The notes below the pieces were generated by a model that had not been told where the DNA came from, did not search any database, and saw only the letters and a list, made by a program, of their open reading frames with translations. A DNA stretch of 64,000 nt from Rhodospirillales bacterium (GTDB lineage: Bacteria; Pseudomonadota; Alphaproteobacteria; Rhodospirillales; UBA2165): NCBI GenBank assembly GCA_965221855.1, contig CBDCSV010000010.1, positions 131,650 through 195,649 of the forward strand. The letters run 5' to 3'. Within the stretch, counting starts at the first letter, position 1; every line of letters starts with the position of its first letter. Below, piece after piece: positions 1,780-23,323 of this stretch. The position numbers and the translations under genes were made by a program.

Positions 1780-3075
1780 CTAACCGAACGACACGATCCG
1801 GATCAATCGCGTCGGCTCCAATACAGCATCCGATTCGGCGATCGCGTCAATGGTCGCCGCGACCGAATCATCCCGGGTTTCGTGGGTGGTCAGCACCACT
1901 TCCACCGCTTCGCCGGGCGCGCGGCCCCGCTGGATGATCGCCTCCATTGAAACATTGTTTTCGTTCAGTGCCGAGGCAATTTCCGCGAAAACGCCGGGCC
2001 GGTCGACCACCGTCAGGCGCAGGTAGTAACGCCCCGTGCGCTGGCTGATGGGGGACGGGCTCGGCTGGGTGAGTTCCGCGCAGGGTACGCCGAAGGCCGG
2101 CGCCATGCGGCCGCGCGCGATATCCACCAGATCGGCGACCACCGCCGAGGCGGTCGGGCCCGCGCCGGCGCCCCTGCCCTCGTACATGGTGGTCTCGACG
2201 GCGTCGCCGTCGACCACCACGGCGTTGAACACGTCCTCGATATGGGCGATCGGGTCGGCGAGCGGCACCATGCAGGGATGCACCCGCTGCTCGATCCCCG
2301 ACGGCGTGCGCCGGGCAATGCCCAGCAGCTTGATCCGGTAGCCGAGTTCCTGGGCGAACTCGAAATCCAGCGGCGAGACGTGGCGGATTCCCTCGGTATA
2401 GATCGAATCGAAGTCGACCTCCGTGCCGAACGCCAGGCTGGCGAGGATGGCCAGCTTGTGGGCCGTATCGACGCCATCGACGTCGAATGCCGGGTCCGCC
2501 TCGGCATAGCCCAGTTCCTGCGCCTCGGCGAGCACCTCGTCGAATCCGCGGCCGGTCTCGCGCATGGTCGACAGGATGTAATTGCAGGTCCCGTTGAGGA
2601 TGCCGTAGACCCGGTCGAAACTGTTGGCCGCCAGACCCTCGCGGAGCGCCTTGACGATCGGAATGCCGCCCGCCACCGCCGCCTCGTAGGCCAAGGCGAC
2701 GCCGGCGCCCTCGGCCGCGCGGGCCAGTTCCGTTCCATGATGCGCCAGCAGCGCCTTGTTGGCGGTGACCACGTGGCGGCCCGCGCCGAGCGCGCTGTCG
2801 ACCACGGACTTCGCGATGCCGTCGGAGCCGCCGATGAGTTCGATGACCACCTCGGCGTCGGCTTTCCCGGCCATCTCGGCCGCATCGTCGTACCACTCGC
2901 ACGCCTCCAGGGCGATGCCCCGGTCCTTGGACCGGTCGCGGGCCGAAACGGCGACCACCTCGAGTTCCCGGCCGCAGCGCCGGGTCAGAAGCCCGGCGTG
3001 GGTATCCAGCACCCGGATAACGCCGGCGCCCACCGTACCGAGCCCGGCAACGGCAATGGTCAATGGCTTGCTCAA
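1780..3075 (-). CDS. hom: Homoserine dehydrogenase with C-terminal ACT domain
   Basis: C-terminal part of ORF 1780..4092: IAVAGLGTVG, VVTANKA, GILNGTCNYIL, GYAEADP; TTG start overlaps the alaC stop (TTGA). Confidence 0.93.
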   Translation of the reverse strand: MSKPLTIAVAGLGTVGAGVIRVLDTHAGLLTRRCGRELEVVAVSARDRSKDRGIALEACEWYDDAAEMAGKADAEVVIELIGGSDGIAKSVVDSALGAGRHVVTANKALLAHHGTELARAAEGAGVALAYEAAVAGGIPIVKALREGLAANSFDRVYGILNGTCNYILSTMRETGRGFDEVLAEAQELGYAEADPAFDVDGVDTAHKLAILASLAFGTEVDFDSIYTEGIRHVSPLDFEFAQELGYRIKLLGIARRTPSGIEQRVHPCMVPLADPIAHIEDVFNAVVVDGDAVETTMYEGRGAGAGPTASAVVADLVDIARGRMAPAFGVPCAELTQPSPSPISQRTGRYYLRLTVVDRPGVFAEIASALNENNVSMEAIIQRGRAPGEAVEVVLTTHETRDDSVAATIDAIAESDAVLEPTRLIRIVSFG

Positions 3076-4295
3076 GATGCGGCTGCCCGGCGGTGCTCTG
3101 TTCTTTCCGGGGCGTCGCCATAGGAGCCGAGGAAGGCCTTGACGTTCCGCGCCGCCTGGCGGATGCGCTGCGGGTTCTCCACCAGGGAGACCCGGACGAA
3201 CCCGTCGCCGCGCTCGCCGAAGGCGATCCCCGGCGACACCGCCACCTTGGCCTCGCCCAGCAGCAACTTGGAGAACTCCACCGAACCCAGGTGCTCCAGC
3301 GCGGGCGGGATCGGGGCCCAGGCGAACATGGTCGCGGGCGGGCTCGGAATGTCCCAGCCGGCCCCGGCCATGCTCTCGACCAGCACGTCGCGGCGGTGCT
3401 TGTAGAGCGCGCGGATTTCGCCGACGCACTCCTGCGGGCCGTTCAGCGCGGCGGTCGCCGCGACCTGGATCGGCGTGAAGGCGCCGTAATCGAGGTAGGA
3501 CTTGATCCGCGCCAAGGCCGCGATCAGGCGCTTGTTCCCGGTGGCGAAACCGACCCGCCAGCCGGGCATGGAATAGGTCTTGCTCATGGACGAGAACTCG
3601 ACGGCGATCTCCCGGGCGCCCGGAACCTGCAGGATCGACGGCGGCGGGTTGCCGTCGAAATAGAGCTCCGCATAGGCCACATCCGACAAAATATAGATGC
3701 CGTGACGGCGGCAGAAATCCACCACGCGGCCATAGAATTCGAGATCGGTGGTGATGGCCGTCGGATTGTTCGGGTAGTTCAGCACCACGGCGGTGGGCTT
3801 GGGCACCGAATGGATGACGGCGCGCTCCAATGCCTCGAAGAACACCTCGTCGGTGGCCACCGGAATGTTCCGCACGCTCGAGCCGGCGATGATGAAGCCG
3901 AACTGGTGGATCGGATAGCTGGGATTGGGCACCAAGATGACGTCGCCGGGGCTGGTAATGGCCGAGGCGAGGTTGGCCAAACCCTCCTTGGAGCCCAGGG
4001 TCACGATGGTTTCGCTCTCGGGATCCACCTCGACGCCGAAGCGGCGCGCATAGTACGCCGCGTTGGCCCGGCGCAGGCCCGGAATGCCGCACGACGCCGA
4101 ATAGCGGTGGGTCCTGGGATCGGTCACCGTCTCGGTGAGTTTTTCGACGATGTGGGGCGGCGTCGGACTGTCCGGATTGCCCATCCCGAAGTCGATGATG
4201 TCCTCACCGGCCGCGCGCGCCTTCGCCTTCATCGAATTGACTTCGTTGAAGACGTACGGCGGCAGCCGCTTTATCCGGTGAAATTCCTGTTCCAT
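3072..4295 (-). CDS. alaC: PLP-dependent class I/II aminotransferase (AlaC / LL-DAP aminotransferase-like)
   Basis: IKRLPPYVF, DFGMGNPD, SDVAY, SMSKTYSMPGWRVGF; usual position upstream of hom. Confidence 0.85.
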   Translation of the reverse strand: MEQEFHRIKRLPPYVFNEVNSMKAKARAAGEDIIDFGMGNPDSPTPPHIVEKLTETVTDPRTHRYSASCGIPGLRRANAAYYARRFGVEVDPESETIVTLGSKEGLANLASAITSPGDVILVPNPSYPIHQFGFIIAGSSVRNIPVATDEVFFEALERAVIHSVPKPTAVVLNYPNNPTAITTDLEFYGRVVDFCRRHGIYILSDVAYAELYFDGNPPPSILQVPGAREIAVEFSSMSKTYSMPGWRVGFATGNKRLIAALARIKSYLDYGAFTPIQVAATAALNGPQECVGEIRALYKHRRDVLVESMAGAGWDIPSPPATMFAWAPIPPALEHLGSVEFSKLLLGEAKVAVSPGIAFGERGDGFVRVSLVENPQRIRQAARNVKAFLGSYGDAPERTEHRRAAAS

Positions 4296-16329: not shown

Positions 16330-16630
16330 AAACCTTTCCCTCTCCCCTGGAGGGAGAGGGTTGCGGAGGCTTGGCGAGTTAGGGCACAAAGCGAACGCAA
16401 AGGTCAATTCTGCGAATTGACCGGGACTGCCCAAGCGAGCCCTAGCCGTAGCTGGGTGAGGGGGAAAAGGATTTCACCACAGAGACACAGAGATCACAGA
16501 GAGGGACTGAATCACCCCCTCACCCTGTCCCTCTCCCCCAAGGGGGCGAGGGAACGCACGGCAAGCTCCCTCTCCCTCTGGGAGAGGTCGGTCATTTCCC
16601 ACAGGGAATTGACCAGGGTGAGGGTGATAT
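16330..16630. repeat. Large composite REP-like cluster
   Basis: Three hairpins, an inverted AGCTACGGCTA module and a TTTCACCACAGAGACACAGAGATCACAGAG module. Confidence 0.8.
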
Positions 16631-16645
16631 GGAGATTCCGCCCCG

Positions 16646-18808
16646 TCACCACCGTATCGCGCCGGTGAGAATTGCGCCGTGGGCCGGGGGTTCGTTGCCG
16701 TTGGCGCTCTCCCGGCGGGTGGCGTCGAGATCGACCCGGAAACCGGCATAGCCCGGCACCGCCGGGGTCAGCCGCCAGCCGACGCGGTAGTCCCGCCCGC
16801 CGCCGTCCGAGGCTCCGAACCCGGCATTGGGCGTGCCGGTCAGGCGCCCGCCCAACAGCCCGAAGCCGTAGCCGAGTTCGCCTTCCAAGGCGCCCGCCTC
16901 TCGCGCATTCGTAGCGCCCGACGCGGCGCCCCGTGGCAGCTCCTCCCGCCACAGGGCGCCGGCCCCGCCGGAGGGCGCGCCCCAGCGGGGGCTCAGGGAC
17001 AAGGACAGTCCGCGCCCGTCCGGCTCCGGCTGCATCCGCACCGTCAGGCTCGCGCCGCGCTCGTCGGCGCCCTTCTCCGAGTGGGCCGCGAGCCAGCGCC
17101 CGCGCGCCTCGACCGCGAGGCCGGGCGCCGCGACGCGCACCCCGCCCGCCAGTTCCAGGCCGGTTCCGGTCAGCCCGTCGCCGCCGTCCCGCCGCCCCGC
17201 CGTCTCGACGAAGGGCGTCAGCGTGGACCCGTCGTCGAACCCGATGCGCCTTGACGCCTCGATGCCGGCCCGCGCCCGCCAGACGTCGGCCCGTATGCCG
17301 TCCACCGCCTGTTCCTCTCCCTCTTCGCCGCCGCCCTTGGCGGTTCGCATCCTGGCGAGGCTCCCATCGCCTTGCGCCGCCAGGGCGATCCCCCCGAGGG
17401 GCGGCAGCTTCCGCTTGAGACCCACCGAACCCGCCCGCATGGTCAGATTGCTTTTCTCCGCCGGCTCGCCGTCTCCCGGCATGTGGCGCGCCTCGCCCCG
17501 GCCGGCGCCCAGCATGCCGCCGAGCTCCAGCCCGTTCCCGAAGGTCCAGCGCCCGTAGGGCCAGAGCGCCGTCAGGTCGGTCTCGATCCGGCCCTTTTCG
17601 TCGTCGAGGGTATAGTCCGTCTCGCTCATCCCGCGGGACACCGCGAGGCCCGCCACCCAACGCCCGGGACGATCCGAACCCCTGGGAGCCTCCCGCGCGT
17701 CCACGCCGAGCCAGCCGGTGCGGGTCTCGCCCCGGTAGCTCGAGACCGCGTCCGGGCGGCCCGAGAAGGAGCCGAAGTCCCCCCGGCCCCACACGGCCCA
17801 GCGGGGCGCAAGGGAATCCAACCTCTCATCCCCCTCCTTGTTTCCGGGGGCCGCGCCCAGCGCGAGCGAGAACGCGCTCGACCCCAGTAGATCGCCGGCC
17901 TCCATCCCCCGGCTCTCGCCGCCGCCCGGCGGCCAGACGCCATCCGGTCCCGCCGCGCCGGTCCCGCCGAACCGGACCGTCTCGCCGGCCAGCGACAGCC
18001 CCGCCGCCGGAACCGCATCGCCCAGCCGCGTGCCGATATGGTCCAGCGCACCCGCAACCGAGCGCGACGCCACCGCCGCCAGGGTCCGCTTCACCACCCG
18101 CTGCTGTTCCTCGGACGCCGGAGACCGGGGCGTGGCCGTGGTGCCCGTGCTCTTGGCGTAACCGTGGATGGCGATCTTCCAGGACACGTTGGACGAGCTG
18201 CTCCACGACCCACCCCATAGGCTTCCGTCGCCGATGCTCCAGCCCGCCGCCGCGCCCGCATCCTCGCTGTCCGAGTTCGTTCGGTGGTATGTGATTCCGG
18301 TGATCGTACCCGCCATCGCCCCTACCCACACCACGAAATACGTCGTGTTGGCGGCAAGGTCGATGCCCGTGGTCGTGCCGGTGACCGTCGTGCCGCTCTG
18401 GGTAATGGTCAACGCACCCAGGCTGCCGCCGGGCTTGTTGTTCGATCCCGACGACTCGATGCGCATTTCCAGGGTAGATATGTCGGAAGAGGTGAGCGTG
18501 CCGGTAACCGGGAATGTCACGCTGGTCAGCTTGTAGCCCGCGGCGTTGCCGCCGGTCGTGAACGCCTGTGCGCGACCAAGAGTAATAACAGTTGTGGAGT
18601 CAGTACTCTGCCCGGTGTTGCTCACCAGCGTGACGGAGGTCTGCGCCTCGGCCGCATCGGCGCCGAGCAGCAGGGCGAAGGCGAGGGCGAGCACGCAGGC
18701 CGCCGCGCGCCAGGCGGAAGGGCGGAATCGGGAAACGGCCCCCGGTGGAATGGACTGCACCGCCGTTGAACCGACCGTGTCCTCTCGCGTCATGCTGGGC
18801 CCCTGCAT
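16646..18808 (-). CDS. Autotransporter (type Va-like) with short passenger and C-terminal beta-barrel
   Basis: Signal peptide ...AAEA/QTSVTLVSNTGQ; Thr/Ser-rich passenger; barrel beginning WAVWGRGDFG; terminal GAIRW. Confidence 0.82.
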   Translation of the reverse strand: MQGPSMTREDTVGSTAVQSIPPGAVSRFRPSAWRAAACVLALAFALLLGADAAEAQTSVTLVSNTGQSTDSTTVITLGRAQAFTTGGNAAGYKLTSVTFPVTGTLTSSDISTLEMRIESSGSNNKPGGSLGALTITQSGTTVTGTTTGIDLAANTTYFVVWVGAMAGTITGITYHRTNSDSEDAGAAAGWSIGDGSLWGGSWSSSSNVSWKIAIHGYAKSTGTTATPRSPASEEQQRVVKRTLAAVASRSVAGALDHIGTRLGDAVPAAGLSLAGETVRFGGTGAAGPDGVWPPGGGESRGMEAGDLLGSSAFSLALGAAPGNKEGDERLDSLAPRWAVWGRGDFGSFSGRPDAVSSYRGETRTGWLGVDAREAPRGSDRPGRWVAGLAVSRGMSETDYTLDDEKGRIETDLTALWPYGRWTFGNGLELGGMLGAGRGEARHMPGDGEPAEKSNLTMRAGSVGLKRKLPPLGGIALAAQGDGSLARMRTAKGGGEEGEEQAVDGIRADVWRARAGIEASRRIGFDDGSTLTPFVETAGRRDGGDGLTGTGLELAGGVRVAAPGLAVEARGRWLAAHSEKGADERGASLTVRMQPEPDGRGLSLSLSPRWGAPSGGAGALWREELPRGAASGATNAREAGALEGELGYGFGLLGGRLTGTPNAGFGASDGGGRDYRVGWRLTPAVPGYAGFRVDLDATRRESANGNEPPAHGAILTGAIRW

Positions 18809-18812
18809 TGGT

Positions 18813-18846
18813 ATTACTCCCGATAACTGTCGTTATCGGGAGTAAT
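18813..18846. other. lox-like recombination site 1 (13-8-13)
   Basis: ATTACTCCCGATA-ACTGTCGT-TATCGGGAGTAAT; perfect inverted arms, 9/13 identical to the loxP arm; 37 bp before the recombinase ATG. Confidence 0.88.
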
Positions 18847-18883
18847 CTGCGGGCTCGCGATTGGACGAACCGGAGGCGCGCAT

Positions 18884-19867
18884 ATGTATCTCGAACCCCC
18901 GGCCGACCCCTGCGAGGAGCCGGGTAATGAACGCGCACCGGTGCTCGCGATGCGACTCCAACGGTTCCTGCAGACAACAAACGGCGCGTTCAGCACGAAC
19001 ACCGAACGGGCGCTCAGGTCGGACCTCGGCATCTATGCGGCGTGGTGCGCCGAGCGGGGGAAGAGGGTCTTGCCGGCGGCGCCCGAGACGGTCGCCGCCT
19101 TCATCGATGCGATGGCGGAGACCCGGGCGCCGGCCACGGTGCGCCGCTACGCCGCCAGCATCGCCAAGGTCCACCGGGAGACCGGATGCGGCAAGATCCT
19201 CAAAAGTCCGGCCGTGCGGCTCGCGCTCAGGCGCATGCACCGCGTGAAGGGGCGGCGCCAGAGACAGGCGCACGGCATGACCGGGCCGCTGCGCGAACGC
19301 CTGCTGGAGGCGGCGGGAGATAGATTGATCGACGACCGCAACCGGGCGCTGCTCGCCGTGGCCTATGACGCCATGCTGCGGCGCACCGAGCTCACGTCTC
19401 TGGAAGTGTCTGATTTTCTTGAGGAAATCGGCGGCGACGCGACCTTGCTGGTGCGCCGCTCCAAGACCGACGGCGAGGGCCGGGGCGAACGCCTCTACCT
19501 CGCGCGCGATACCGTTGTGTTGGTGCGCGCCTGGCTGGAACGCAGCGGGATCCAGGAGGGAAGGCTGTTCCGCTCGGTCGGCAAGGGCGGCGGGCTCGGC
19601 GAGGGGCTCGATCCGAGCCAGGTGCCGCGCATCTTCAAGGGCATGGCGCGCCGCGCCGGACTGCCGGCGGCGATGGTGCAGGGCCTGTCCGGGCACTCGG
19701 CCCGGGTGGGCGCGGCCCAGGACATGATCGCCGCCGGTATCGAGCTTCCGGCAATCCTCCAGGCCGGGCGGTGGAAGTCGACCGCCATGGTCAACCGCTA
19801 CGGCGAGCAGCTATTGGCGCGGCGCAGCGGGGCCGCCCAGCTCGCCCGGCTTCAGGAACGGAGCTGA
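18884..19867 (+). CDS. Cre-type tyrosine recombinase
   Basis: Catalytic set LRRTEL (R), RRSKTD (K), GHSARVG (HxxR), GRWKS (W), NRYG (Y); N-terminal TNTERALRSD helix; SD GGAGG. Confidence 0.92.
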   Translation: MYLEPPADPCEEPGNERAPVLAMRLQRFLQTTNGAFSTNTERALRSDLGIYAAWCAERGKRVLPAAPETVAAFIDAMAETRAPATVRRYAASIAKVHRETGCGKILKSPAVRLALRRMHRVKGRRQRQAHGMTGPLRERLLEAAGDRLIDDRNRALLAVAYDAMLRRTELTSLEVSDFLEEIGGDATLLVRRSKTDGEGRGERLYLARDTVVLVRAWLERSGIQEGRLFRSVGKGGGLGEGLDPSQVPRIFKGMARRAGLPAAMVQGLSGHSARVGAAQDMIAAGIELPAILQAGRWKSTAMVNRYGEQLLARRSGAAQLARLQERS

Positions 19868-20006
19868 AGGTTGCCGGGGGTGTGCGAATACGGCTGCCGG
19901 GCTATAATGACCGGGCGGCCATGGCGGTGCATGGGCGAGCCGTGGCGGCATCGAAGGGGCCGAATCCGGCCCTGGCGGGCCTCAAGGGCGCAAATCCGGA
20001 AAATGT

Positions 20007-20019
20007 TATCAGGAGTAAT
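20007..20019. other. Isolated lox half-site
   Basis: TATCAGGAGTAAT, 12/13 identical to the arm of site 1; no full partner arm at 8-bp spacing. Confidence 0.6.
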
Positions 20020-20170
20020 AATCGGCGCGGGCGGCGGGTCCGGCGTCCCGGCGGCGCTGCCCGGCAGGAGCCGGCCGGCCTGGAAAAAACGGCGGACGTT
20101 CAAGGGGTTACCGGAAATTGGCGGCGGAACGCGGTGCCTTGCCGGAGGTGCGGCGCACCGCCGGTGCAAG

Positions 20171-21450
20171 GGTAACGTCAAGAGTTATGTGTCAGGGAGA
20201 GAGGGGTACTGATTCCCTGAGACTTGTTTTCGTGAATGAAGACCGCGTAGAGGATGCGGTCCATTGAGGTTTTATCCTTGAAGGTTCCCATGGGCCGGGT
20301 TCGTCTGCGAACCTCGCGGAACCTCCGTTCGATGGCATTGGTGGTCCTGACCTGCTTTCGCTCGGCGAGGTCCTTGTAGCGGAAGCAGGTGAGCAGGTCG
20401 TCGAGGTCGTTGCGCAGGCAGGCGACGGCCTTGGGGTAGGTATCTTCCCAGGCGTCGGCGAAGCGGCGGGCGGCGGTCTCGGCCTTGCGGCGGTTGGGGG
20501 CATTCATGACGGCGTGGACGTCGGCCTTGACGGCCTGCTGGTCGGCTACGCGGACCTTGTTGAGGATGTTCCTGATTTTGTGCGCCCAGCACCTCTGAAC
20601 GGGGATGCCGTGATAGACGATCGGCAAGGCGGCGAGCAGGCCTTGGCCGCCATCAACGCAGATCATCTCAAGGCCCTCGCCGGTGAGGCCGCGGCGGTGC
20701 AACGCGGTGAGGAAGCGCTCCCACTCCGCGGCGCTCTCGCTGGCGGCGAGTTGGAAGTCGATAATCTCCTTCTTGCCGTCGTGCCGTATGCCCAGCGCCA
20801 CCAGGACCGGCCTCCTGAGCGCGCCGGCGCCGGTCTTGCAGGCCAGCACCACGCCGTCGAGCATCAGCGCCTTGTAGGCGTTCTTCAGCGGCCGGCGGTG
20901 GAATGCGGCGACCGACAGATCGAGGGTCTTGGCGACCCGGCTCACCGTCGCGGCCGAGACCGGACGCCCGAGCAGGGCAAGCAGGACCTCGCCGACCTTG
21001 CGGGTCGAGAGCCCCAGCACGAAGCCGGCCAGGATGGCGCGGTCGATCTCTGGAGCGCGCCTTGCGTAGCTCTTCAGAACCTCGGTCGGGCAGAAGTGCC
21101 GGGTGCGCGGCACGTTGAGCTCGATGTCGCCGAGCTCGCTGAGCAGGCGGCGCCGGTAGGTGCCGTTGCGCCGGTCGCGCATAGCGCTGCCATCGAGGCC
21201 GTCGAGCCAGCGATCCACCGCCTCGGCCATCCGGCCCTCGATGATCTCGGCCAGCGCCTGGCGGCCAAGCGGGCGATAACCCTCGCCCCAGTCCAATCCG
21301 CCTGCTTGCATCTCCTTCACCACCTCAAAGGCTTGTGGTAGGTTCTCAATCGTTACAGCTTGCTGTGGCATCGGGGTGATCCTTCTTGCGGTTGTCGTAA
21401 ACCACAGGGAGTACCCCATTCCCAACTGACACATAAATTTTTACGTCACC
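20171..21450 (-). mobile_element. IS256-family element, copy 1 (1280 bp)
   Basis: Ends GGTAACGTCAAGAG / TTTTTACGTCACC; 8-bp TSD GGTGCAAG at 20163 and 21451. Confidence 0.93.
20178..21371 (-). CDS. IS256-family transposase
   Basis: RNGTYRR, GLSTRKV, LMLDG, ICVDG, QRCWAH, TTNAIER. Confidence 0.93.
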   Translation of the reverse strand: MPQQAVTIENLPQAFEVVKEMQAGGLDWGEGYRPLGRQALAEIIEGRMAEAVDRWLDGLDGSAMRDRRNGTYRRRLLSELGDIELNVPRTRHFCPTEVLKSYARRAPEIDRAILAGFVLGLSTRKVGEVLLALLGRPVSAATVSRVAKTLDLSVAAFHRRPLKNAYKALMLDGVVLACKTGAGALRRPVLVALGIRHDGKKEIIDFQLAASESAAEWERFLTALHRRGLTGEGLEMICVDGGQGLLAALPIVYHGIPVQRCWAHKIRNILNKVRVADQQAVKADVHAVMNAPNRRKAETAARRFADAWEDTYPKAVACLRNDLDDLLTCFRYKDLAERKQVRTTNAIERRFREVRRRTRPMGTFKDKTSMDRILYAVFIHENKSQGISTPLSLTHNS

Positions 21451-21473
21451 GGTGCAAGTGCGTTCTTGACAAG

Positions 21474-21507
21474 TTTGCTCCTGATAACGACAGTTATCGG
21501 GAGTAAT
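21474..21507. other. lox-like recombination site 2, inverted relative to site 1
   Basis: TTTGCTCCTGATA-ACGACAGT-TATCGGGAGTAAT; spacer is the exact reverse complement of the site 1 spacer; inner arm has 3 mismatches. Confidence 0.85.
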
Positions 21508-21714
21508 CCAGCGCCGGACCAAGCGGCCGACGCCGGTCCGGACGGCTCAGGCCTCCGCTACTTTCCCCCATTCCCCGACACATCGTTAGTCCCGAAAGCG
21601 AAAGAGCATCGAGGGTGGGGGAGACCTTGTGCCGCGCCACTTGAAATCCCCTTAGATGATCTATAAATATAGCATGGCCTATTTTTACGATTTGTTTATG
21701 GGACGAACAGAGCA

Positions 21715-22053
21715 ATGGCGAAACCCGCACACAGAAGCTATTCCCGCTATGCCCGCGAAGCCGCGGAGCTTCTTGGGCTGATGATCCGTAACGCGCGCAT
21801 CGAACGCGGCATCACGGTCGCCGATGCCGCCGAACGCGCCGGGATTTCGCGCGGACTCGCGCACCGCATCGAAAAAGGCGAAATGGGCACCTCCATCGGT
21901 GCGGCCTTCGAGGTGGCCGCCATTGTCGGGTTGCGCTTGTTCGAAGCCGAACCGGCAACGCTGACGCGCCATCTGTCGATGGAACGCGACAAGCTCACCC
22001 TGCTGCCGCAATCCGTCCGCACGGGAAGGACGAAGGTGAAAGATGACTTCTGA
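21715..22053 (+). CDS. XRE/HipB-like HTH antitoxin
   Basis: IRNARIERGITVADAAERAGISRGLAHRIEKG; overlaps the hipA-like gene. Confidence 0.82.
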   Translation: MAKPAHRSYSRYAREAAELLGLMIRNARIERGITVADAAERAGISRGLAHRIEKGEMGTSIGAAFEVAAIVGLRLFEAEPATLTRHLSMERDKLTLLPQSVRTGRTKVKDDF

Positions 22054-23323
22054 TCGCCCCGGCACGAGAGTACCGGAGGAAGCCTACGTCTGGATATGGC
22101 TGCCCGGCGCGACGGCGCCGGTGGTCGCCGGCCGCATCGCGCGCGACGGCGGGCGGCTGATCTTCAACTACGGCCGGAGCTATCTGGACCGGAACGACCG
22201 CATCCCGATCCACGAACCTGAACTGCCGCTGCGCGGCGGAGCGATCGCGCCCGAAGCCGGGCTGAGCATGGCCGGATGCCTGCGCGACGCCTCGCCCGAT
22301 GGATGGGGGCGCCGCGTCATCCTGAACCGGACCCTCGGACGCAAGGGCAAGGATGCCGACACCGCCGAGCTCGACGAGCTGACCTATCTGCTGGAGTCCG
22401 GCTCGGACCGAATCGGCGCCCTGGATTTCCAACGCTCCCCTTCCGAGTACGTGCCGCGCGCCGCCCGAGCCGCGACGCTCGAGGAGTTGCTGAGCGCCGC
22501 CGAGAAAGTCGAGAATGGCGTGCCGCTGTCGCCCGATCTCGATCAGGCGCTGCTGCACGGCACGTCGATCGGCGGCGCGCGCCCGAAGGCGATGATCCAG
22601 GACGGCGACACGAAGCTGATCGCCAAGTTCTCGTCCTCGGCCGATACCTACAACGTGGTGAAGGCGGAATATGTCGCCATGCGCCTTGCCGCCGAGGCGG
22701 GGCTTGACGCCGCCCCCGTGCGTCTCGAGCGCGCCGCCGGCAGGGACGTGCTGCTGGTCGAGCGATTCGACCGCACCAGGAAGAAAGACGGCTGGACGCG
22801 GAAGGCGATGGTCTCGGCGCTGACGCTGTTCCTTCTCGATGAGATGATGGCGCGTTACGCCAGCTATGAAGTCTTCGCGGAAATCATCCGGCATCGCTTC
22901 ACCTCGCCGAAGGCGGCGCTGCACGAGCTGTACGGTCGGCTGGTGTTCAACGTCCTGTGCGGCAACACCGACGATCACGCCCGCAACCATGCGGGCTTCT
23001 GGGACGGCGAACACCTGACCCTGACGCCCGCCTATGACATTTGCCCGCAGATGCGCACCGGCAATGTGGCCGGCCAAGCGATGCTGATCGTAGGAGACAA
23101 CCGGACGAGCACACTTGCGGCCTGCCTCGAGGCCGCGCCGAATTTCCAACTCGGCGAGACAGCGGCGAAAGACATCATCGCACGGCAGATCGGCGCAATC
23201 CGGGACGCATGGGATGACATCTGCGAGGAGGCCGCATTGACCGAAGTCGAAGGCAACCTGTTCGGCCAGCGGATCTTTCTGAACGACTATATCTTCGAAG
23301 GCGCTCCGAAAGGCCCGTGGTGA
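22043..23323 (+). CDS. hipA: HipA-family kinase toxin
   Basis: GTSIGGARPKA, LLVERFDR, GNTDDHARN, LTPAYD. Confidence 0.9.
   Translation: MTSDRPGTRVPEEAYVWIWLPGATAPVVAGRIARDGGRLIFNYGRSYLDRNDRIPIHEPELPLRGGAIAPEAGLSMAGCLRDASPDGWGRRVILNRTLGRKGKDADTAELDELTYLLESGSDRIGALDFQRSPSEYVPRAARAATLEELLSAAEKVENGVPLSPDLDQALLHGTSIGGARPKAMIQDGDTKLIAKFSSSADTYNVVKAEYVAMRLAAEAGLDAAPVRLERAAGRDVLLVERFDRTRKKDGWTRKAMVSALTLFLLDEMMARYASYEVFAEIIRHRFTSPKAALHELYGRLVFNVLCGNTDDHARNHAGFWDGEHLTLTPAYDICPQMRTGNVAGQAMLIVGDNRTSTLAACLEAAPNFQLGETAAKDIIARQIGAIRDAWDDICEEAALTEVEGNLFGQRIFLNDYIFEGAPKGPW

Follow-up and report, generated by a model that had tools for sequence, protein, structure and literature searches.

A chromosomal Cre-type recombinase cassette with two inverted lox-like sites: a proposed DNA inversion switch for an adjoining surface-protein gene

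Introduction

The elements of the Salmonella H segment follow one another in the order hixL-hin-promoter-hixR-fljBA, and the outward promoter drives the surface-antigen gene in one orientation only. The invertase Hin is a serine recombinase dependent on Fis and an enhancer. Cre-type recombinases have been described in phages and plasmids; there, a single lox-type site is used for circularisation or for the resolution of dimers. For comparison with the locus described here, Cre/loxP of phage P1, SCre/SloxP, VCre/VloxP, Dre/rox, Vika/vox and the YR series were considered together as the Cre-type group. In this group the 34-bp target of 13-8-13 architecture lies directly upstream of the recombinase gene, a GATA arm end beside the spacer is a feature of the active sites, and inverted sites with matching spacers lead to inversion, not to excision (PMC10250229).

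Tyrosine recombinases also invert promoter elements beside adhesin genes, as found for FimB/FimE-fimS and IpuA/IpuB-ipuS; the ipuS switch of E. coli controls the autotransporter UpaE (PMC6083910). Such Fim-type switches span 260–314 bp, are bordered by 7–9-bp inverted repeats and depend on IHF and Lrp. Their recombinase genes are positioned outside the switch, ipuS overlapping the 3' end of ipuA. Programmed inversions and phase variation are further attributed to PsrA (CreX), the tyrosine recombinase encoded in the hsdS locus of Streptococcus pneumoniae (PMC7096588); this system shuffles type I restriction specificity coding segments via several inverted repeats.

The locus reported here was found in a 64-kb stretch of DNA, termed the window. 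Like the Cre-type group, it encodes a two-domain tyrosine recombinase with the full R-K-H-R-W-Y set, its 34-bp 13-8-13 target is placed directly upstream of the gene, and its arms contain the GATA end. Unlike Cre itself, the enzyme is low in sequence identity, the aligned region being only distantly related, and unlike the phage and plasmid systems the cassette is chromosomal and contains a second, inverted site as a conserved part, so that inversion, and not resolution or circularisation, would be the expected natural reaction. Compared to the Cre-type group, the cassette also adds an internal half-site, a conserved, putative outward −35 element and a link to a surface-protein gene. With the H segment it shares, according to the logic proposed below, a recombinase gene and a far-end outward promoter between inverted sites, whereas its enzyme is a tyrosine recombinase and its sites are of the lox and not of the hix type; the resemblance to the Hin system is convergent and architectural, without homology. 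With the Fim-type switches it has in common a tyrosine recombinase and an invertible, here putative, promoter beside an adhesin-type gene. The differences from these consist in 34-bp lox-type sites, a recombinase gene that in most loci of the family resides inside the segment, and an enzyme of the Cre clade. In contrast to PsrA (CreX), the cassette is proposed to flip a promoter between two lox-type sites. We consider it probable that the cassette constitutes a self-contained DNA inversion switch, operated by its Cre-type enzyme, for phase variation of the adjoining surface-protein gene.

Results and Discussion

Architecture of the cassette

The features of the locus are compiled in Table 1. 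Sites L and R together form the inverted repeat I1 of 36 nt with 92% complementarity; the outer arm of site R is perfect and its inner arm carries three mismatches. A preceding interpretation of this DNA (the sequence-only reading) had claimed two inverted 34-bp sites with an identical asymmetric spacer, and the coordinates, the arms and repeat I1 bear this out. The exact 13-mer arm occurs three times in the window, always inside sites L and R, compared to about 0.002 occurrences expected at random, which excludes a chance origin of the arm repeats; an explanation of the two sites as chance repeats was ranked low. Recounting against the textbook loxP arm ATAACTTCGTATA reproduced the previously stated identity of 9/13 positions. 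The suspected likeness to SloxP could likewise be substantiated, as the CCGATA arm end and the ACTGT spacer start of the window sites are both present in the SloxM1 site printed as CTCGTGTCCGATA ACTGTAAT TATCGGACACGAG (PMC3082901). Two inverted 13-bp arms and an 8-bp asymmetric spacer close to the recombinase gene, as typical for Cre-type targets, were found in the window and in 43 related loci. The distance of about 58 bp from site L to the recombinase ATG downstream is kept in related loci. In the window, only 37 bp lie between the ATG and the inner arm of site L; consequently, the promoter of the recombinase gene must either overlap site L or be located outside the segment.

Table 1. Features of the cassette and its surroundings in the window
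Feature	Position	Strand	Description
Autotransporter-type surface-protein gene, 720 aa, putative target	16646..18808	-	Pfam Autotransporter beta-domain, 5e-13
Site L, proximal lox-like site	18813..18846	+	ATTACTCCCGATA-ACTGTCGT-TATCGGGAGTAAT, 13-8-13, perfect arms
GGAGG ribosome-binding site of the recombinase gene	18872..18876	+	Sequence; layout kept in related loci
Cre-type tyrosine recombinase, 327 aa, intact	18884..19867	+	Pfam Phage_integrase
Internal half-site M, single arm TATCAGGAGTAAT	20007..20019	+	One mismatch; preceded by AAAATGT
IHF-like motif TTCAAGGGGTTA (consensus TTCAACGGGTTG)	20099..20110	+	Same relative position in most loci compared
IS256/Mutator-family IS, secondary insertion inside the segment	20171..21450	-	Pfam, repeats, target duplication
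TTGACA, putative outward -35	21466..21471	+	Separated by 2 nt from the inner arm of site R
Site R, distal lox-like site	21474..21507	-	Minus-strand reading ATTACTCCCGATA-ACTGTCGT-TATCAGGAGCAAA; inverted relative to site L, same spacer
Conserved non-coding right flank	21508..21625	+	GC-rich hairpin just outside site R, then conserved block

Among all PDB sequences, the best solved-structure match of the recombinase is Cre (E 3e-29, residues 33–313), and the next family, XerD, reaches only 4e-3. The residues R166, K194, H271, R274, W297 and Y306 align with R173, K201, H289, R292, W315 and Y324 of Cre and are invariant in 120/120 family representatives, in agreement with the earlier assignment of an intact recombinase with the R-K-H-R-W-Y set between the sites. 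More than 2000 homologues were retrieved, the best 120 clusters of which comprise proteins of about 327 aa with 72–93% identity. Pfam assigns Phage_integrase only; a serine recombinase (resolvase) domain is absent. Neither the window recombinase (P0001) nor its 87%-identical relative P0004 has an entry in the contig index.

The segment of the window measures 2.7 kb including an IS256-type insertion, whose transposase ORF (20178–21434, minus strand) matches Pfam Transposase_mut with 7e-77. Imperfect terminal inverted repeats (I2) delimit the element at 20171 and 21450, and its 8-bp target duplication GGTGCAAG occupies 20163–20170 and 21451–21458. Both the presence of this insertion and the preceding estimate of roughly 1.4 kb for the segment prior to it proved correct, the latter on the basis of L039 (recombinase 93% identical), which is devoid of the IS and measures 1396 bp between the outer site edges. 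IS elements are repeatedly encountered inside the cassette in related loci.

The family of related loci

As the arm sequence differs among relatives, related loci were collected by protein-anchored searches; the exact site core is absent from 185,579 representative genomes. The resulting family set comprises 52 loci with a complete recombinase at ≥60% identity, and the inverted site pair is present in 43 of them. Most paired loci have a unit length of 1339–1417 bp; exceptions are L010 and L014 with 1955 bp, L023 with 1544 bp and longer units where an IS lies inside. Eleven spacers occur across the loci, and the central 6 bp are identical within the pair in 43/43 cases. In a set of 25 loci, the spacers match in 25/25 pairs, compared to a mean of 7.7 and a maximum of 15/25 upon random re-pairing (10,000 permutations). 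This co-variation fits inversion, since Cre-type strand exchange requires homology between the spacers. Several family loci originate from sponge metagenomes, the hosts being uncultured marine bacteria. The sequence-only reading of a chromosomal self-inverting unit is supported by comparison and proved incomplete, not incorrect: the cassette does not stand alone but is one member of a widespread family associated with the 5' ends of surface-protein genes.

The variant L057 follows the Fim/Ipu layout: its recombinase gene lies outside, and a 323-bp TTGACA-bearing segment between two inverted full sites forms the putative invertible promoter segment, which adjoins an adhesin-type leader.

The distribution of the family would also be compatible with a mobile element, in which the 34-bp sites serve as terminal inverted repeats and the tyrosine recombinase acts as a transposase for excision and insertion. 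Several copies are found per MAG beside non-orthologous genes (five loci in MAG CBDBCG01), recombinases of 64–79% identity occur in both Alpha- and Gammaproteobacteria, again next to non-orthologous genes, and the unit length is tightly conserved. We nevertheless regard this explanation as very unlikely. Target-site duplications and direct repeats flanking the sites are absent, no empty sites were seen, and the homology between copies continues past the outer arms into the leader and 130–700 bp into the right flank. Moreover, the sites are complete two-arm sites with asymmetric spacers that match in inverted orientation, and both rearrangements observed, described in the following section, are inversions.

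Even lower is the probability, in our judgement, that the cassette is a decaying and now functionless relic of a plasmid- or phage-borne Cre/lox-type system for dimer resolution or circularisation, captured in the chromosome. Relatives of 45–50% identity on plasmids, some with a single upstream site (L031, L060 and L061), and the recurrent IS elements inside the cassette would be in line with such an origin. Against it stand more than 100 clusters at 72–93% identity whose ORFs are intact and equally long, with invariant catalytic residues, as well as the conservation and co-variation of both sites, the half-site and TTGACA. The surroundings of the window locus are chromosomal, with thiG-type and 3-dehydroquinate dehydratase-type ORFs nearby, and only one distant relative (51% identity) was found on viral contigs. 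The plasmid-borne distant relatives are common in Methylobacterium, Azospirillum and others; in L031, L060 and L061 the single site is situated just upstream of the gene.

Evidence for inversion of the segment

In two comparisons, the inner segment is flipped between homologous flanks with the breakpoints inside the sites. In the first, L010 and L014, paralogues from one MAG, are collinear over the inner 1.9 kb with 97% identity, and their flanks are swapped and inverted. In the second, L016 is flipped relative to the orthologous loci L003 and L028; L016 and L070–72, representing this case, are truncated downstream of the recombinase and may be dead, locked copies. The assumption of the sequence-only reading that the enzyme flips the segment carrying its own gene is well supported by the architecture of 43/52 loci, the spacer identity and the two flipped comparisons, and inversion by the encoded Cre-type enzyme is accordingly predicted from these sequence data. 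The orientation analysis covers consensus assemblies, nearly all of which are in the orientation of the window (state A), including 9/9 contigs that encode an identical recombinase. The junction pattern of the inverted form (state B) of the largest subfamily was not detected in the 185,579 representative genomes.

The adjoining gene and the putative outward promoter

The first ATG of the autotransporter gene is located 4 nt past the outer arm of site L, with an alternative ATG at 18792, and the minus-strand sequence of the outer arm provides a GGGAG 8 nt before the start codon. In related loci, an autotransporter or giant adhesin gene usually begins 4–30 bp, and sometimes as much as a few hundred bp, past the proximal site. 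Pfam analysis or gene calls in 11 loci identified the gene past site L as coding for a surface protein in each case, with starts 4–170 bp away. Autotransporters adjoin site L in the window and in L068/L069; in the other loci the protein is a giant of the Calx-beta, cadherin, Fn3, SWM, He_PIG or LRR type, with lengths reaching 4396 aa. In 24/43 paired loci, site L is followed by an outward ORF of ≥400 aa. The adhesin link is found in both Alpha- and Gammaproteobacteria, despite the adhesin genes being non-orthologous. Start codons 4–30 bp from the site leave no space for a private promoter, and transcription must therefore cross the site.

At the opposite end of the segment, 35/39 distinct sequences contain TTGACA ahead of the distal site, separated from it by 2 nt in 32 cases and by 1 nt in 3; further upstream, the DNA is unconserved. 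A candidate −10 hexamer, GACAGT (21489–21494), lies within the spacer of site R and matches at 3/6 positions; a sigma-70 consensus scan called zero promoters in the window and in L039. No −35-like hexamer exists at the equivalent position of site L, and visual inspection for a promoter directed leftward from site L yielded no convincing or conserved candidate. At the L014 junction, the order TTGACA-GG-site-AAT-AGGAG-N6-GTG is followed by a 657-aa ORF, which corresponds to the predicted ON arrangement; in L010, the start of the homologous gene adjoins the 5' end of the recombinase gene. Because the −10 element is weak and a single orientation is found in almost all assemblies, we infer the promoter and the ON/OFF logic from these arrangements. 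The conserved TTGACA, the internal half-site and the adjoining adhesin or autotransporter gene had not been mentioned in the sequence-only reading.

In the common orientation, the DNA directly downstream of TTGACA is the right flank, which is conserved over 130–700 bp across loci. That of the window is shared with L002, L033, L038 and L039 and has a folding z-score of −2.45. Since the indels in alignment A1 have lengths not divisible by three, the flank is treated as non-coding. Pfam produced no match for its candidate ORFs, and no Rfam family matched the conserved right flanks; the sole hit was a sub-threshold whalefall-1 match elsewhere in the window. The flank may serve as insulator, terminator or regulatory region.

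These properties provide an argument for a different role of the inversion, in which the segment does invert, yet for expression of the recombinase itself or for transcription of a right-flank RNA, the adhesin link reflecting the places that receive or tolerate such cassettes. The position of the conserved non-coding flank behind TTGACA, the dominance of state A in all assemblies and the weak −10 element speak in its favour. This role appears unlikely to us in view of the gene starts 4–30 bp outside the site in many loci, the ON-type junction of L014 and the adhesin link, which spans Alpha- and Gammaproteobacteria with non-orthologous genes. Screening of the right flank by eye for a leftward promoter, which would drive the recombinase gene after inversion, revealed no convincing or conserved candidate.

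Proposed mechanism and implications

For the phase-variation switch that we favour, the following scenario is proposed. The recombinase would bind to all four 13-bp arms of the inverted 13-8-13 site pair, strand exchange would occur within the identical 6-bp centre of the spacers, and the 1.4-kb segment containing the recombinase gene (2.7 kb in the window with the IS256 insertion) would flip. The presumed outward promoter at the distal end would consist of the −35 element TTGACA 2 nt inside site R, a −10 element in the spacer and a start point in the outer arm. In state A, as recorded in the window, this promoter would face the non-coding flank with its hairpin, and the autotransporter gene would be left without an upstream −35 element. 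In state B, the promoter would be placed about 40 nt upstream of the autotransporter ATG and the gene would be switched on. The functional order in the cassette would then read site, recombinase gene, promoter, site and target gene.

Extended to the entire family, this scenario describes a widespread, portable Cre-type inverton of 1.4 kb that phase-varies any adjoining giant adhesin or autotransporter gene in uncultured Alpha- and Gammaproteobacteria, at least some of them sponge-associated; we advance this extension tentatively, as a possibility of slightly less than even chance. If it is true, switching would be strongly biased to OFF, possibly via the half-site and the conserved right flank, and a second layer of switching would come from tetranucleotide repeats in the leaders of some genes. 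It would also be the first gene-expression switch of the Cre/lox type found in nature and, for sponge symbionts, the first described case of programmed phase variation, and would supply dozens of naturally diverged sets of recombinase, arm and spacer.

Cre-type chemistry appears to have been taken up as a chromosomal ON/OFF switch for surface proteins. If confirmed, the cassette would be the tyrosine-recombinase equivalent of the Hin system; it would assign a natural role to inverted lox-type sites and provide a mechanism by which Fn3, cadherin, LRR and Calx-beta giant proteins are displayed in a phase-variable manner. Giant proteins of this kind are thought to mediate the contact between sponge symbionts and their host. 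Full-text literature searches retrieved no description of such a system; the approximately 500 predicted Cre-type pairs tabulated for PMC10250229 may already include members of this family. The family is in addition a predicted source of natural Cre-type recombinase/site pairs which, if confirmed, would offer genome engineering a panel of diverged enzymes, each with its cognate arms, and no fewer than 11 natural spacer variants.

Possible accessory elements within the segment

Two further conserved elements reside between the recombinase gene and the distal site. The motif TTCAACGGGTTG resembles the IHF site WATCAANNNNTTR and may be bound by an architectural protein. Half-site M follows the recombinase stop codon at a distance of about 140 bp in nearly all loci. 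Owing to the missing second arm and the spacer mismatch, we read it as a putative accessory recombinase-binding site, and the conservation of both elements makes an accessory input to recombination possible. Half-site M agrees more closely with the arms of the element in which it lies than with the arms of other elements (11.2 vs 10.1 of 13 positions), and in L057 its position is occupied by a full site.

Sites, recombinase and cassette family

The sequence-only reading had claimed two inverted 34-bp lox-type sites with an identical asymmetric spacer, and both the window sequence and a repeat search bear this out. The recombinase-proximal site L and the distal site R share the spacer in opposite orientation; the outer arm of site R is perfect and its inner arm carries three mismatches. 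Within the 64-kb window the exact 13-mer arm is confined to these two sites. It agrees at 9 of 13 positions with the arm of the textbook loxP sequence. The CCGATA arm end and the ACTGT spacer start are indeed common to SloxP, as the published SloxM1 sequence CTCGTGTCCGATA ACTGTAAT TATCGGACACGAG confirms (PMC3082901).

Coordinates and layout of the cassette features (unprefixed coordinates refer to the window; L numbers denote related loci carrying a homologous recombinase)
Feature	Position	Remarks
Site L, 13-8-13, 34 bp	18813-18846	ATTACTCCCGATA-ACTGTCGT-TATCGGGAGTAAT; both arms perfect
Tyrosine recombinase, intact, 327 aa	18884-19867	Pfam Phage_integrase
Half-site, single arm	20007-20019	
IS256/Mutator-family element	20171-21450	8-bp target duplication GGTGCAAG; inside segment, after recombinase gene
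TTGACA, outward-pointing	21466-21471	before inner arm of site R
Site R, 13-8-13, 34 bp	21474-21507	minus strand reads ATTACTCCCGATA-ACTGTCGT-TATCAGGAGCAAA
Layout 1: full site	~58 bp upstream of recombinase ATG	43/52 loci
Layout 2: recombinase gene	between full site and half-site	43/52 loci
Layout 3: single-arm half-site	~140 bp past recombinase stop codon	43/52 loci
Layout 4: inverted full site	~300 bp past recombinase stop codon	43/52 loci
Paired direct-repeat sites	L014:3883-3963; L010:2692-2772	
(GCCT)n tracts	L057:2606-2657; L011:3773-3840; L019:3787-3842; L001:3835-3854; L067:4829-4852	

Equally, the predicted intact recombinase with the Cre-type R-K-H-R-W-Y set was verified by Pfam and by alignment with Cre, whose catalytic residues correspond to R166, K194, H271, R274, W297 and Y306; all six positions are invariant among 120 family representatives. 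A search against all PDB sequences gave Cre entries as the best matches (E 3e-29, query residues 33-313), with XerD as the runner-up family (4e-3). Cre-type recombinases with 13-8-13 sites are as such already well known. The protein search with the window recombinase yielded more than 2000 homologues; in the top 120 clusters nearly all are 327 aa long and 72-93% identical. Viral contigs contributed only one distant relative (51% identity), and every plasmid-borne relative falls below 50%.

Protein-anchored scans and contig look-ups gathered 73 related loci from alpha- and gammaproteobacterial MAGs and from metagenomes, often several per genome; the sources include the sponge metagenomes LXNI (Sarcotragus foetidus) and MKWU (Aplysina aerophoba) (PMC5099237). 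The same layout, with an inverted site pair detectable by regular expression, recurs in 43 of the 52 loci whose recombinase is complete and at least 60% identical. The others are mostly truncated, have variant arms or lie on a 1x-coverage contig (L047); in L022, L055 and L056 the arm variants were missed by the regular expression and the site pair is visible by eye. Most units are 1339-1417 bp long; those of L010/L014 measure 1955 bp and that of L023 1544 bp, and units with an inserted IS are longer. L039, whose recombinase is 93% identical to that of the window, lacks the IS and spans 1396 bp across both sites. In sequence, the half-site follows the arms of the element it belongs to, and at its position L057 has a full site. 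An IHF-like motif, TTCAACGGGTTG, is conserved in most of the loci.

The cassette interior is a repeated landing place of IS elements: IS256-family elements occupy one relative position in the window and L038, three contigs (L041, L044, L046) carry an IS66 downstream of the recombinase gene and ahead of site R, and in L073 an IS1595 (2942-3880) separates site L from the recombinase gene. Three distant relatives of 48-49% identity (L031, from a Methylobacterium MAG, L060 and L061) have one 13-8-13 site directly upstream of the gene (L031:3883-3916, L060:3734, L061:1888) and no detectable second site, which suggests that the two-site inverting layout was derived from a single-site, Cre/loxP-like ancestor.

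Evidence for inversion between the sites

In all 43 pairs the two spacers share an identical, inverted 6-bp centre, with 11 different spacers found family-wide. Random re-pairing of a 25-locus set (10,000 permutations) produced on average 7.7 and at most 15 matches, compared with 25/25 observed. Cre-type strand exchange requires an identical overlap region (PMC10250229). Moreover, the paralogues L010 and L014 of one MAG are collinear over the inner 1.9 kb (97% identity) and have swapped and inverted flanks, the alignment breakpoints falling on the 19 central bases of the sites. In L016, sequence found in L003 and L028 as right flank, i.e. just outside site R, adjoins the recombinase 5' end, and here too the breakpoint falls within the site. 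Matched spacers and these two flipped comparisons support the earlier proposal that the enzyme inverts the segment encoding itself. A transposon with lox-like terminal repeats is unlikely, as target duplications are absent at the sites, both flanks show homology beyond the outer arms, and both observed rearrangements are inversions. Given the intact, strongly conserved ORFs and co-varying sites, it is also unlikely that the cassette is the decaying remnant of a plasmid or phage resolution system.

The orientation seen in the window (state A) prevails in almost all assemblies, including 9/9 contigs encoding one identical recombinase, and a junction pattern specific for the flipped segment (state B) had no match in representative genomes. 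No promoter was found for the recombinase gene itself. In the window its ATG follows the inner arm of site L after only 37 bp, so this promoter must either overlap site L or lie outside the segment, and recombinase expression would then depend on the enzyme's own binding or on orientation. We speculate that such a dependence may explain the bias towards state A.

In the L010/L014 subfamily two directly repeated full sites, 47 bp apart, precede the recombinase gene. Of these, the outer one served as partner in the L010/L014 inversion, and the stretch between them looks like a copy of the RBS and start codon of the putative target gene (see below). L016 and L070-L072 retain a single site, their recombinase 5' end adjoins right-flank-type DNA, and a cytochrome P450 fragment takes the place of the 3' side, with TraL and HicB genes close by. 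Truncated downstream, they may be dead copies and look like degenerate, locked versions in a plasmid- or ICE-like setting.

A putative promoter switch for surface-protein genes

In all 11 loci checked by Pfam or gene calls the gene beyond site L encodes a surface protein and diverges from the recombinase gene. It is an autotransporter in the window, with its ATG 4 nt from the arm of site L, and in L068/L069; the other checked loci carry Calx-beta, cadherin, Fn3, SWM-repeat, He_PIG or LRR giants of up to 4396 aa. Of the 43 paired loci, 24 have an outward ORF (at least 400 aa) whose start falls within 460 bp of site L. Some start codons lie just 4-30 bp from the outer arm, too close for a private promoter to fit in between; these genes must therefore be transcribed across the site, and their transcription must depend on which segment end faces them.

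In 35 of 39 distinct sequences a perfect TTGACA at the other end points outward, 2 nt (32 cases) or 1 nt (3 cases) short of the distal site's inner arm. Conservation is poor in the DNA that precedes it, and no -35-like hexamer occurs at the equivalent position of site L. The candidate -10 element, GACAGT within the spacer, matches at 3/6 positions, and a consensus scan called no promoter.

The best-supported reading, we infer, is a promoter switch for the surface-protein gene, with the order site, recombinase gene, promoter, site and target gene. In state A the putative promoter would face the conserved non-coding right flank; in state B the TTGACA would come to lie ~40 nt ahead of the target start codon, and transcription is predicted to begin in the outer arm. 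This state-B junction is present in L014, which reads TTGACA-GG-site-AAT-AGGAG-N6-GTG followed by a 657-aa ORF; in its paralogue L010 the homologous gene start adjoins the recombinase 5' end. The Hin H segment of Salmonella has the same layout of site, recombinase gene, promoter, site and target gene, but Hin is a serine invertase, whereas the enzyme here is Cre-type. In the L057 variant the recombinase lies outside a 323-bp TTGACA-bearing segment, which is enclosed by two inverted full sites and adjoins an adhesin-type leader. This layout resembles fimS and ipuS, the latter being the switch of the E. coli autotransporter UpaE (PMC6083910). Adhesin genes under invertible promoters are well known already; a natural, conserved, chromosomal Cre/lox-type inversion switch carrying its own recombinase and tied to giant surface proteins was not found in full-text literature searches, a comparison that excludes the ~500 predicted Cre-type pairs of PMC10250229.

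Inversion might also serve another purpose, e.g. self-regulation or control of a right-flank RNA, which we regard as possible. The right flank is a conserved non-coding hairpin region of ~130 bp in the window's subfamily (21508-21625) and a conserved non-coding stretch of ~700 bp in another (L005:5328-6050 and equivalents in the right-flank alignment A1). Nearly all subfamilies carry the motif GCGCAAGnnATTG at a distance of 55-75 bp from site R, and the right flanks gave no Rfam or Pfam match.

Further features of the neighbourhood

Tetranucleotide tracts, (GCCT)n with n = 5-17 on the coding strand, were seen outside the lox-like site at a distance of 75-150 bp, within the leader or 5' part of adhesin genes. 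They translate as ACLPACLP... and are absent from the window; they may provide a second layer of slipped-strand phase variation. Downstream of the window's autotransporter gene (16330-16640) are palindromic REP-like repeats, CCTCTCCCC...GGGAGAGG, over which spurious ORFs read PLTLTLSPKGERG; a whalefall-1 RNA match at 16566-16625 is sub-threshold (26.5 bits, gathering score 37). Directly past the right flank, toxin-antitoxin modules were observed, an HTH protein with HipA in the window (21715-23323) and RES with Xre in L068 (7135-8013) and L069 (7136-8014), which may reflect coincidence or island context.
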